Of a stretch of 8,419 bases of DNA, positions 1-6,000 are shown in pieces (the stretch's first letter is position 1; each line of letters begins with the position of its first letter). The position numbers were made by a program. This DNA comes from a virus (lineage: Duplodnaviria > Heunggongvirae > Uroviricota > Caudoviricetes). The DNA lies in the IMG/VR virus record IMGVR_UViG_2663763054_000004. One strand, given 5' to 3'.

Positions 1-3000
1 GGTTAATCCTGCGAATGGCAACACAAAACCGATGTTTGTTGGTCAGGGCGATCAGATATTCATGAACGACGTGTTCCTGAAATGCCTGACGGCCCCCACC
101 ATTACCAGCGGTGGAAATCCATCGGCATTTTCCCTGACTCCGGACGGAAAGCTGACCGCTAAAAATGCGGATATCAGTGGCAGTGTGAATGCGAACGCCG
201 GGACGCTCAACAATGTCACGGTAAATGAAAACTGTACGATTAAGGGCATGCTGGAGGCGACTCAGGTCAGAGGTGACTTCGTTAAAGCTGTATCCAAATC
301 ATTTCCGAAACAGGCTGGTACGTGGGGTAACACGGAAACACCAAACGGGACGGTTACAGTCACCATAAGCGATGATCATAACTTTGACCGCCAGATTATT
401 ATTCCGCCCATTATTTTTAACGGTATAGCGTATGACGATCCGGGGAGCGGAAATAACCCAGGAGGCACGCGATACACGGGTTATGGTTTTGAAGTTCGCA
501 AAAACGGCGTATTAATCGCATCCAGAGAAACTAAAGGTGCCATTCCCGGTAGTTACAGTGCAGTTATTGATATGCCTAGTGGTGGTGGTAGCGTCACTCT
601 GGAGTTTAAGATTTTCCAGAAAGGCAATCAGGGGGCAGGCAATATCACCGACTGTACGGTGATTGTGACCAAAAAAGCGGCTTCCGGCATCAGTATTCGT
701 TGAAATATTTATAACCCCAATAAATGGCGTCAGGAATGACGCCTTTTTTATTGCAGAAAAGCGAGAGGTAATTATGCGTAAAGTTTGTGCAGCCATTTTG
801 TCCGCAGCCATTTGCCTGGCCGTATCCGGTGCGCCTGCATGGGCGTCTGAACATCAGTCCACGCTGAGCGCCGGGTATCTTCAGACCCATACTGATATGC
901 CAGGCAGCGATGACCTGAAGGGCATTAACGTGAAATACCGTTATGAGTTTACGGACACGCTGGGGCTGATTACGTCATTCAGTTATGCCAACGCTGAAGA
1001 TGAGCAAAAAACGCATTACAGCGATACCCGCTGGCATGAGGATTCCGTGCGTAACCGCTGGTTCAGCGTGATGGCGGGGCCGTCTGTGCGCGTGAATGAA
1101 TGGTTCAGCGCGTATGCGATGGCGGGCGTGGCTTACAGCCGTGTGTCGACCTTCTCCGGGGATTATCTCCGCGTAACTGACAACAAGGGGAAAACGCACG
1201 ATGTGCTGACCGGAAGTGATGGCGGTCGCCACAGCAACACGTCTCTGGCGTGGGGGGCTGGCGTGCAGTTTAACCCGACCGAATCCGTGGCCATTGACCT
1301 TGCTTATGAAGGTTCCGGCAGTGGTGACTGGCGCACTGACGGTTTCATCGTGGGTGTCGGTTATAAGTTCTGATTAGCCAGGTAACACAGTGTTATGACT
1401 GCCCGCTGGTTCAGGCGGGCTTTTTGTGGGGTGAATATGGCAGTAAAGATTTCAGGTGTACTGAAAGATGGGGCGGGTAAACCTGTCGTAAATTGTGCGA
1501 TTGAACTGCGGGCCAGAAGAACCAGTCCGACCGTTGTGGCACACGTTGTTGCCACTTGCGTGACGGACAATAACGGTGCTTATGTGATTGAGGCTGAGCC
1601 GGGGTATTACGAGGTTGCGCTTCACTGTAACGGCTGGCAGCCAACCCGTGTCGGGGATATTGATGTGGCACCGACTGATGCACCGGGGACACTGAACGCG
1701 TTTCTGAATGCACCAAAGGATGGTGATTTACGTCCGGAGGTGATGAAGTGTCAGCGCCAGTGATATAAGACGGTAATTCGCCATTTGGATTGTCCGCTCC
1801 ACCCAACATGTTGTTTCCTTAAGGTTCTCACACCAGAAAGGACATCAACATGCTGAGCAGAGAGGACTTTTACATGATAAAGCAAATGCGCCAGCAGGGC
1901 GATCCGGCGTCGGTATCGTTCCGGATTGCCGCACCGGCAGCGCTGTCGCGGATTGAGCTGACGCCGGGCTATTTTCAGATAACCGCCACGCCGCATCTTG
2001 CGGTTTATGATCCGACGGTACAGTTTGAGTTCTGGTTCTCGGAAAAGCGGATTGCGGATATCAGGCAGGTTGAAACCACAGCACGCTATCTTGGCACGGC
2101 GCTGTACTGGATAGCCGCCAGTATCAATATCAAACCGGGCCATGATTATTACTTTTATATCCGCAGTGTGAACACCGTTGGCAAATCGGCATTCGTGGAG
2201 GCTGTTGGTCAGCCGAGTGATGATGCATCCGGTTATCTGGATTTTTTCAAAGGCGAGATAGGGAAAACCCATCTGGCTCAGGAGCTGTGGACGCAGATTG
2301 ATAACGGTCAGCTTGCGCCTGACCTGGCTGAAATCAGGACGTCCATTACGGATGTCAGCAATGAAATCACGCAGACCGTCAATAAGAAACTGGAAGACCA
2401 GAGTGCGGCAATTCAGCAGATACAGAAGGTTCAGGTTGATACAAATAATAACCTGAACAGCATGTGGGCTGTGAAGCTGCAGCAGATGCAGGACGGACGC
2501 CTTTATATCGCGGGTATTGGTGCCGGTATTGAGAACACCCCTGACGGCATGCAGAGTCAGGTGCTGCTGGCGGCGGACAGGATTGCGATGGTTAATCCTG
2601 CGAATGGCAACACAAAACCGATGTTTGTTGGTCAGGGCGATCAGATATTCATGAACGACGTGTTCCTGAAACGCCTGACGGCCCCCACCATTACCAGCGG
2701 TGGAAATCCATCGGCATTTTCCCTGACTCCGGACGGAAAGCTGACCGCTAAAAATGCGGATATCAGTGGCAGTGTGAATGCGAACGCCGGGACGCTCAAC
2801 AATGTCACGGTAAATGAAAACTGTACGATTAAGGGCATGCTGGAGGCGACTCAGGTCAGAGGTGACTTCGTTAAAGCTGTATCCAAATCATTTCCGAAAC
2901 AGGCTGGTACGTGGGGTAACACGGAAACACCAAACGGGACGGTTACAGTCACCATAAGCGATGATCATAACTTTGACCGCCAGATTATTATTCCGCCCAT

Positions 3001-6000
3001 TATTTTTAACGGTATAGCGTATGACGATCCGGGGAGCGGAAATAACCCAGGAGGCACGCGATACACGGGTTATGGTTTTGAAGTTCGCAAAAACGGCGTA
3101 TTAATCGCATCCAGAGAAACTAAAGGTGCCATTCCCGGTAGTTACAGTGCAGTTATTGATATGCCTAGTGGTGGTGGTAGCGTCACTCTGGAGTTTAAGA
3201 TTTTCCAGAAAGGCAATCAGGGGGCAGGCAATATCACCGACTGTACGGTGATTGTGACCAAAAAAGCGGCTTCCGGCATCAGTATTCGTTGAAATATTTA
3301 TAACCCCAATAAATGGCGTCAGGAATGACGCCTTTTTTATTGCAGAAAAGCGAGAGGTAATTATGCGTAAAGTTTGTGCAGCCATTTTGTCCGCAGCCAT
3401 TTGCCTGGCCGTATCCGGTGCGCCTGCATGGGCGTCTGAACATCAGTCCACGCTGAGCGCGGGGTATCTTCATGCCCGGACCAACGTTCCCGGCAGTGAT
3501 GATCTGAACGGGATTAACGTGAAATACCGTTATGAGTTTACGGATACGCTGGGGCTGGTGACGTCATTCAGCTATGCAGGAGACAAGAATCGCCAGCTGA
3601 CCCGTTACAGCGATACCCGCTGGCATGAAGATTCCGTGCGTAACCGCTGGTTCAGCGTGATGGCGGGGCCGTCTGTGCGCGTGAATGAATGGTTCAGCGC
3701 GTATGCGATGGCGGGTGTGGCTTACAGCCGTGTGTCGACTTTTTCCGGGGATTATATCCGCGTAACTGACAATAAGGGGAAAACGCACGATGTGCTGACC
3801 GGAAGTGATGACGGTCGCCACAGCAACACGTCTCTGGCGCACTGACGGTTTCATCGTGGGTGTCGGTTATAAATTCTGATTAGCCAGGTAACACAGTGTT
3901 ATGACAGCCCGCCGGTTCAGGCGGGCTTTTTTGTGGGGTGAATATGGCAGTAAAGATTTCAGGTGTACTGAAAGACGGCACAGGAAAACCGGTACAGAAC
4001 TGCACAATCCAGCTGAAAGCAAAACGTAACAGCACCACGGTGGTGGTGAACACGCTGGCCTCAGAAAATCCGGATGAAGCCGGGCGTTACAGCATGGACG
4101 TTGAGTACGGTCAGTACAGCGTTATTCTGTTGGTGGAAGGATTCCCGCCGTCACATGCCGGGACCATCACCGTGTATGAAGATTCCCGACCCGGTACGCT
4201 GAATGATTTTCTCGGTGCCATGACGGAGGATGATGCCCGTCCGGAGGCACTGCGCCGTTTTGAGCTGATGGTGGAAGAGGTGGCGCGTAACGCGTCCGCG
4301 GTGGCACAGAACACGGCAGCCGCGAAGAAATCAGCCAGCGATGCCAGCACATCAGCCCGTGAGGCGGCAACCCATGCGACTGATGCTGCAGATTCAGCAC
4401 GTGCAGCCAGCACGTCAGCCGGACAGGCCGCTTCGTCGGCTCAGTCAGCGTCTTCCAGCGCAGGAACGGCATCAACAAAGGCCACTGAAGCCTCAAAAAG
4501 TGCTGCCGCTGCAGAGTCCTCAAAAAGCGCGGCGGCTACCAGTGCCGGTGCGGCGAAAACGTTAGAAACGAATGCGGCAGCGTCACAACAATCAGCAGCC
4601 ACTTCTGCATCCACCGCGACCACGAAAGCGTCAGAAGCTGCCACCTCAGCCCGGGATGCGTCGGCTTCAAAAGAGGCGGCAAAATCATCAGAAACGAACG
4701 CATCATCAAGCGCCAGTAGCGCAGCTTCCTCGGCGACGGCGGCTGCAAATTCTGCGAAGGCGGCCAAAACGTCCGAGACGAACGCCAGGTCTTCTGAAAC
4801 GGCAGCGGGACAGAGTGCCTCAGCTGCGGCAGGCTCAAAAACAGCGGCTGCGTCGTCTGCCAGCGCCGCGTCAACAAGTGCCGGGCAGGCCTCAGCCAGT
4901 GCCACCGCCGCCGGAAAATCGGCAGAAAGCGCCGCATCATCCGCTTCAACAGCCACAACGAAGGCTGGCGAAGCCACTGAGCAGGCCACGGCAGCAGCGA
5001 GGTCAGCTTCCGCAGCGAAGACATCCGAAACGAACGCGAAAGCGTCGGAAACCCGTGCAGAATCCTCAAAAACGGCTGCCGCATCGTCCGCCAGTTCGGC
5101 GGCGTCATCGGCATCATCGGCGTCTGCTTCAAAAGATGAGGCGACCAGACAGGCGTCAGCAGCGAAGGGCAGCGCCACGACGGCATCCACGAAGGCGACA
5201 GAGGCTGCTGGTAGTGCGACGGCAGCAGCTCAGAGCAAAAGTACGGCGGAATCTGCAGCAACGCGCGCTGAGACAGCGGCAAAACGGGCAGAGGATATTG
5301 CATCCGCCGTGGCGCTTGAGGATGCGAGCACGACGAAAAAGGGGATAGTACAGCTCAGTAGTGCGACTAACAGCACTTCCGAGTCACTGGCGGCAACACC
5401 AAAAGCCGTTAAGGCCGCGTATGACCTGGCTAACGGGAAATACACCGCACAGGATGCAACGACAGCACAGAAAGGGATAATCCAGCTAAGCAGCGCGACC
5501 AACAGCACGTCTGAAACGCTGGCGGCAACGCCAAAGGCAGTAAAAGCAGCCAATGACAATGCTGAGAAACGTCTGCAGAAAGATCAGAACGGTGCGGATA
5601 TCCCTGGCAAAGACACCTTTACGAAAAATATTGGTGCCTGCCGTGCCTTCGGTGGGTCAGTAAGCACAACAACAGGAAACTGGACGACTGCACAGTTTAT
5701 CGAGTGGCTGGGTTCTCAGGGAGCATTTAACCATCCATACTGGATGTGCAAGGGTTCCTGGTCTTATGGCAATAATAAAATCATTACTGATACTGGCTGC
5801 GGTAATATTCATCTCGCCGGAGCTGTCATTGAAGTAATGGGGATAAAGTCAGCGATGACGATCCGCATTACCACTCCGACCACATCCAGCGGTGGCGGAA
5901 CAACCAACGCCCAGTTTACCTATATTAATCACGGAACAGATTATTCACCTGGCTGGCGAAGGGACTATAACTCCAGAAATAAGCCAACGGCATCAGAGAT

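Follow-up and report, generated by a model that had tools for sequence, protein, structure and literature searches.

An open reading frame joining the IS21 istA leader to the 3' part of a prophage J gene in a Shigella sonnei draft genome is an accidental in-frame chimera

A truncation of the lambda tail-tip protein gpJ that starts at residue 713 (gpJ713) forms complexes with Shigella sonnei LamB in vitro (PMC11101478). From this construct (PDB 8XCJ/8XCK; chains of 420–428 amino acids, aa), a C-terminal piece of J is known to be capable of folding and of receptor binding as a free protein. Here, we analyzed an open reading frame (ORF) that enters J at about residue 700 rather than 713 and lies at 1850–3292 on the + strand of an 8,419-nucleotide (nt) stretch of tailed-phage DNA (IMG/VR record IMGVR_UViG_2663763054_000004). 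The whole stretch, which we call the window, is contig CXFM01000188.1 of the S. sonnei draft genome GCA_001247155.1. A preliminary description had taken the ORF for a 5'-truncated J gene with its own Shine-Dalgarno sequence, and had raised the possibility of a second, differently regulated receptor-binding cassette. The ORF, we conclude, is a chimera that came to be in frame by accident; it is not a second receptor-binding gene. It consists of a leader from the insertion sequence (IS) IS21 followed by the last 40% of an ordinary prophage J gene, a kind of arrangement that is already known. As for the DNA join that defines it, we lean towards a false join made during scaffolding and gap closing of the draft genome.

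Three described systems are close enough for comparison. In lambda-type J (gpJ; PDB 8IYK and related entries), ORF residues 15–480 correspond to the C-terminal 40% and align to gpJ 697–1131. The full-length protein carries 699 N-terminal residues and its gene follows gene I in the tail operon, whereas the ORF lacks both and begins instead with 14 transposase residues. The second system, IS21, is an element of ~2,100 nt that encodes istA (about 390 aa) and istB; the piece in the window shares its left inverted repeat and the 5' end of istA, 98–100% identical to annotated copies, but amounts to just 153 nt. Finally, in Escherichia coli VTB97379v (NZ_CP178682.1; record L031, 2904–8530), a complete copy of ISEc62, an IS21-family element with istA and istB, is inserted within J. 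There too, an IS21-family element lies beside J fragments in a lambdoid tail region, but the element has both ends and splits J into two annotated pseudogene halves, whereas in the window an internal position of IS21, nt 153, meets J. Insertion of IS21-family elements into J thus does happen, but at element ends, and an internal-IS21-to-J join such as this one is not a product of transposition. IS21 transposition into J is therefore ruled out as its origin. The parts of the chimera are as follows.

1749–1901, + strand: IS21 nt 1–153, with the left terminal inverted repeat, the untranslated leader, the istA Shine-Dalgarno sequence (1837–1842), the istA ATG (1850) and istA codons 1–17.
1850–3292, + strand: the chimeric ORF, IstA residues 1–14 (17 including the shared QQG) joined to J residues 700–1165.
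1892–1901, + strand: the overlap CAGCAGGGCG, which is both IS21 nt 144–153 and J gene nt 2098–2107, and forms the junction.
1892–3292, + strand: J codons 700–1165 plus the stop codon, encoding the second immunoglobulin (Ig)-like domain, the tail-tip fibre and the C-terminal receptor-binding domain.

The individual signals that drew attention to the ORF are all present. It is initiated by ATG and runs for 480 codons plus a stop, the TAA at 1820–1822 lies upstream in the same frame, and AAAGGA at 1837–1842 stands at a good spacing (7 nt) from the ATG. The Pfam matches on the ORF are all above their cut-offs (Ig_J_second, residues 33–133; Phage_Tail_Tip, 187–315; Ig_GpJ_C, 344–479), and these J-type C-terminal domains bear out the view of a 5'-truncated J that retains the receptor-binding end. 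Neither the hub domains of the J N-terminus nor the first of the Ig-like domains is left in the ORF (Pfam FNIII-A_GpJ, Phage-tail_3 and the first Ig_J); FNIII-A_GpJ and Phage-tail_3 are present in full-length S. sonnei J. Against PDB entries, ORF residues 12–148 match lambda gpJ 697–833 and residues 181–479 match gpJ 838–1131. In a tblastn comparison with a full-length 1165-aa J (J_B), ORF residues 15–480 are identical to J_B residues 700–1165 at 466 of 466 positions. Thus, the proposal that the ORF represents roughly the last 480 residues of gpJ holds for residues 15–480 (466 aa) and fails for the first 14, which are IstA. The ORF is also not placed directly after the tail-operon genes K and I; the outer-membrane protein gene lom, a side tail fibre gene fragment (stf') and the IS21 fragment precede it instead.

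Alignment with annotated IS21 shows that the left end of the element, TGTCAGCGCC..., begins at 1749 and that the IS21 piece ends at 1901. When 1740–1930 was compared by megablast with 5,426 complete E. coli genomes, it matched thousands of places annotated as 'istA: IS21-like element IS21 family transposase' (98.2% identity), and these matches all end at window base 1901. The piece at 1749–1901 is 100% identical to the IS21 copy in S. sonnei record L011, at a prophage locus that we call locus A, and the first 17 residues of the ORF are exactly the N-terminus of IstA. The J fragment does not, therefore, possess a Shine-Dalgarno sequence of its own: AAAGGA and the ATG are where IS21 initiates translation of istA. 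The rest of the element (remaining istA, istB and the right inverted repeat) is not in the window, where the full IS21 region matches only 1739–1901 by blastn.

J homology starts at 1892, at the nucleotide and protein levels alike, and the 10 nt that follow belong to both parents. The overlap CAGCAGGGCG encodes QQG in istA and in J, and for this reason the IstA'-'J fusion is in frame. Between the first 450 nt of IS21 and the J gene there are three 10-mers in common and none longer; since 68% of shuffles share at least one, an identity of 10 nt is at chance level. In the contig, the Shine-Dalgarno sequence and ATG are thus connected to J codon 700 through 10 nt that the two parents share by chance.

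The fusion is unique to this contig. A single recorded contig, the window itself, encodes exactly this 480-aa product, compared with at least 1000 contigs for the intact 1165-aa parent J. Variants of the chimera (with alternative starts, with the Cys variant described below, or with the J allele of contig ACAUBL010000018.1) are absent elsewhere in the protein collection. The junction DNA is likewise absent from GTDB representative genomes, IMG/VR and JGI metagenomes, and among the 5,426 complete E. coli genomes no place listed spans the junction at high identity, the top-ranked one being an unrelated two-piece match (92.9%). The idea of a second, different receptor-binding cassette is not borne out: the J part is 100% identical to residues 700–1165 of the resident J, it equals the J 3' end at window 1–703 apart from one base, and the fusion is unconserved.

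Comparison with complete S. sonnei chromosomes assigned the two parts of the chimera to two prophage loci. In the chromosomes shown among the matches, locus A has the order M-L-K-I-J (1159 aa)-lom-stf'-IS21, and locus B the order H-M-L-K-I-J (1165 aa, intact)-lom (deleted)-stf-tfa-IS1. In every complete S. sonnei chromosome examined, ~680 kb separates the two pieces; in the records that show both loci, B is the upstream one and the two share one orientation. Window 816–1901 is 100% identical to locus A and 1892–8419 is 99.985% identical to locus B, while 1–815 is B-type and differs from the J located ahead of the locus-A lom. The features upstream of IS21 that record this alternation are listed here.

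1–703, + strand: J 3' end of the locus-B type, 233 codons plus stop, with the 5' part of the gene lying outside the contig (tblastn to J_B residues 933–1165, 99.6% identity).
774–1373, + strand: lom, an Ail/Lom outer-membrane protein of 199 aa (Pfam Ail_Lom, E = 4e-129), locus-A type from base 872.
816–871, no strand assigned: the 56-nt stretch of the B-to-A switch, identical in the J-lom loci A, B and C.
1437–1748, + strand: stf', a side tail fibre gene of which the IS21 insertion leaves the N-terminal part (Pfam phage_tail_N positions 1–104 of 134).

The contig thus disagrees with the order in the reference genomes at two points and traverses the same J 3' segment twice. Its switch from B-type to A-type within 816–871 occurs in none of 10 complete or near-complete chromosomes; upstream of lom in locus A, bases 812 and 815 are A-type in all ten and B-type in this contig only. 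Given the 680-kb distance between the two loci and their shared orientation, a duplication- or circle-type or complex event, and not a deletion, would be needed to produce the join. Bases 1–871 equal 2590–3460 except for T83 versus C2672 (Cys versus Arg in FLK[C/R]LTAP). A simple tandem duplication of J-lom-stf is ruled out, since identity is confined to these bases and then falls to 96% in lom and 75% in stf, and since the two units map to loci 680 kb apart. In locus A, the IS21 copy continues as istA, with a 109-aa ORF before another IS interrupts it. The stf' ORF as called in the window (1395–1763) stops inside IS21; its 122-aa product is listed in 543 blocks, and the same stf'::IS21 context is found in the complete S. 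sonnei chromosomes shown.

The way in which the contig was produced bears directly on the join. Accessions CXFM01000001–361 correspond to run ERR042790, an S. sonnei entry in the supplement of Page et al., 2016 (PMC5320598). The pipeline comprised VelvetOptimiser/Velvet, SSPACE scaffolding and 120 rounds of GapFiller, and its authors warn that the two greedy tools 'can lead to false joins' (PMC5320598). GapFiller counts a gap as closed on two conditions: an overlap of 'at least 10 nucleotides' between the extensions, and a fill that deviates from the estimated gap by no more than 50 nt (PMC3446322); the junction overlap, at exactly 10 nt, equals this threshold. Sister assemblies from the same pipeline have N gaps left open within J, ~100 nt upstream of the junction site, and in one of them a gap is spurious, its two flanks sharing a 38-nt overlap. 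In the sister scaffolds CWVY01000079.1 (L009) / CWYF01000012.1 (L010), 9626–11232, the same J 3' contig is tied across N gaps to two tail operons, recognizable by tape-measure proteins of 853 aa versus 1077 aa, so that either a fourth prophage has this J end or the scaffolding of J is unreliable. In addition, contig ACAUBL010000018.1 of another S. sonnei genome ends at the equivalent of base 1891, one base from the junction, and its next 812 nt are identical to the window. Because this unrelated contig ends there, base 1891 is a natural break point in the assembly graph.

On balance, we favor a false join, with modest confidence. The contig is unique, the 680-kb geometry is awkward, a second join is equally unmatched, J is looped through twice, the overlap sits at the 10-nt threshold, and the sister assemblies are unreliable at this gene. 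The scaffolder would have set a locus-A piece (lom, stf' and IS21 nt 1–153) beside a locus-B piece (from J codon 700), and the gap closer would then have merged the two at CAGCAGGGCG, the open frame arising through the QQG common to both. In the real genome, J would be a normal 1165-aa tail-tip gene and the IS21 copy would run on as istA. The case is a caution that a truncated gene with a perfect ribosome-binding site can be a mere transposase leader abutting a gene fragment, and that where short-read drafts of IS-rich genomes (those of Shigella, for example) have been scaffolded and gap-closed, the abutment itself may come from software.

Several observations weigh against this explanation. 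The two J 3' copies differ at T83 versus C2672, which suggests that two physically distinct copies were present in the reads. The 62-nt IS1 overhang at the right end of the contig suggests an assembly k of 63; the left contig end fits no single value. If k was indeed 63, then the B-to-A switch within the 56-nt repeat would need real reads that span it. Scaffolders need several linking read pairs, and no repeat was found that could supply false links between the stf'/IS21 edge and J. Moreover, the J contig of the sister assemblies starts 99–215 nt upstream of the junction and not at it.

The strongest alternative, which we rate as a serious possibility that falls short of an even chance, is that the join is real and private to this isolate. 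In such a microhomology-mediated event, B would pass into A within the 56-nt lom repeat, lom-stf'-IS21 nt 1–153 would be copied, and the 10-nt identity would allow a return to J at codon 700; template-switching repair is one candidate mechanism. The outcome would be a 2589-bp insertion that duplicates the J 3' end, with the IstA'-'J ORF as a neutral by-product. A single complex event of this kind would cover three oddities together (the switch at 816–871, the junction at 1892–1901 and the base difference 83/2672), and it would place both switches on common sequence, of 56 nt and 10 nt. It would also suit S. sonnei genomes, which are rich in IS elements and decayed prophages, and the fact that contigs are normally built from k-mers in reads, just as scaffolds need linking pairs. 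However, it requires template switches between loci 680 kb apart and is represented by one assembly against at least 1000 contigs with the intact gene. Its microhomology is exactly the gap closer's 10-nt threshold, and its junction falls within 1 nt of another strain's contig break; an assembly effect would predict this proximity, whereas in a real event it would be a coincidence.

Even a real join would leave the ORF with good translation signals and no evident promoter. A consensus scan, which is weak evidence, found no sigma-70-like site on the + strand between 600 and 4000, and a terminator-like hairpin (1401–1420) lies 3' of lom, upstream of the ORF; both count against the private rearrangement. 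Expression from a single IS21 copy is weak for istA itself. The ORF would thus be expressed at most weakly, from read-through or native istA expression, and the window would be a small private case of microhomology-mediated template switching between prophages with no evident biological consequence. The fallback offered in the preliminary description, a dead remnant, comes nearer the truth than a receptor-binding cassette, but an assembly false join is at least as likely.

We consider it very improbable that the ORF is a functional, selected gene, encoding either a free trimeric J C-terminal fragment that blocks related phages or a second receptor-binding cassette. In favor of such a gene, the second of the Ig-like domains is retained together with the tip fibre and the receptor-binding domain, the start is close to the gpJ713 boundary, and the 7-nt Shine-Dalgarno spacing is suitable. 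By analogy with gpJ713, the J fragment could be biochemically competent as a free protein; gpJ713 is a laboratory construct, whereas the ORF is known from sequence and its receptor-binding domain is another allele than lambda's. In contrast to what selection would predict, the fusion is unconserved in the other genomes searched, its receptor-binding end is the same as that of the resident J and brings no new specificity, its start signals were gained by a chance 10-nt identity, and no promoter-like site was found. A cytoplasmic protein without a signal peptide would not be expected to reach an outer-membrane receptor from inside, and the adjoining lom is a deletion pseudogene, which fits a decaying region. 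Equally far-fetched, in our estimate, is the particular combination of a real join with a soluble trimeric IstA'-'J fragment that is translated from captured IS21 signals and lowers adsorption of related phages. Were it true, an insertion sequence would have given rise to a free receptor-binding protein by donating a start site, and the fragment, released for example by lysis, would occupy the receptor of the resident prophage family. The ORF is incidental under either reading of the join, and nothing points to a receptor-binding gene that is under selection and has its own regulation.

That J was simply broken by a frameshift or nonsense mutation, its upstream part surviving in another frame, is practically ruled out, because six-frame tblastn with two full-length J proteins found no J homology in the window outside 2–700 and 1892–3289 (other hits, E ≥ 0.35) and because the 520 bases 5' of the junction are lom, stf' and IS21, not J. 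On this point, where a continuation of J in a shifted frame had been named as the thing to look for, the truncated-J reading stands.

The remaining features of the window lie downstream of the chimera and belong to locus B.

3363–3845, + strand: a lom copy, a pseudogene with a 160-aa product and an 83-bp internal deletion between CTGGCG repeats.
3944–7027, + strand: stf, a full-length side tail fibre gene (1027 aa, ATG at 3944; Pfam phage_tail_N, Phage_fiber_2 and Collar), the same gene as in locus B.
7027–7608, + strand: tfa, tail fibre assembly, 193 aa (Pfam Caudo_TAP, E = 5e-44).
7609–8357, no strand assigned: an AT-rich spacer (29–35% GC) between tfa and IS1.
8358–8419, + strand: the first 62 nt of IS1, at the contig end.

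The deletion in the second lom copy maps to window 3836–3841 as compared with 1250–1333 in the first. Since the same truncated 160-aa Lom is listed in 1212 blocks of the collection, the deleted copy is an old, fixed pseudogene in S. sonnei.

The Cys variant of J encoded by T83 does not correspond to a known J allele, in that no full-length J carrying this Cys is present in the protein collection; the same T also occurs in the otherwise divergent J of locus A. A third J allele, at a locus C beside dinI-prfC-osmY, is found in S. sonnei GCA_052803095.1 on the contig mentioned above (ACAUBL010000018.1; L004). An ancestry of the junction at locus C near prfC, with the assembler threading from there into B, is not supported: chimeras on that allele are absent, and the contig starts with the J base G at 1891 and not with the IS21 base C. 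Locus A (L011:10355–13853) is itself heavily interrupted. The IS21 copy that truncates stf is broken after about nt 428 by an IS3-family element and further IS copies follow, so that nested insertions occupy a decayed prophage adjoining the sit (ABC-3/ZnuA) operon.

Within stf, a long Ala/Ser/Thr-rich low-complexity region with strong AT skew extends over 4300–5300, and the Phage_fiber_2 repeats at 5339–5425 and 5471–5557 are 77% identical in DNA. The 3' part of tfa contains a full-length match to the Rfam family IS009 (RF02111) at 7370–7568 on the + strand, with a score of 218 bits versus a gathering threshold of 117. Complete genomes continue from 8358–8419, which we take to be IS1 terminal sequence, into the remainder of IS1, with insA called ~55 nt inside. 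The spacer at 7609–8357 has no ORF of at least 60 aa; just two shorter ones (48 and 52 aa) occur, both on the minus strand, and the spacer also holds an imperfect inverted repeat of 25 nt (7758–7782 / 8088–8112).

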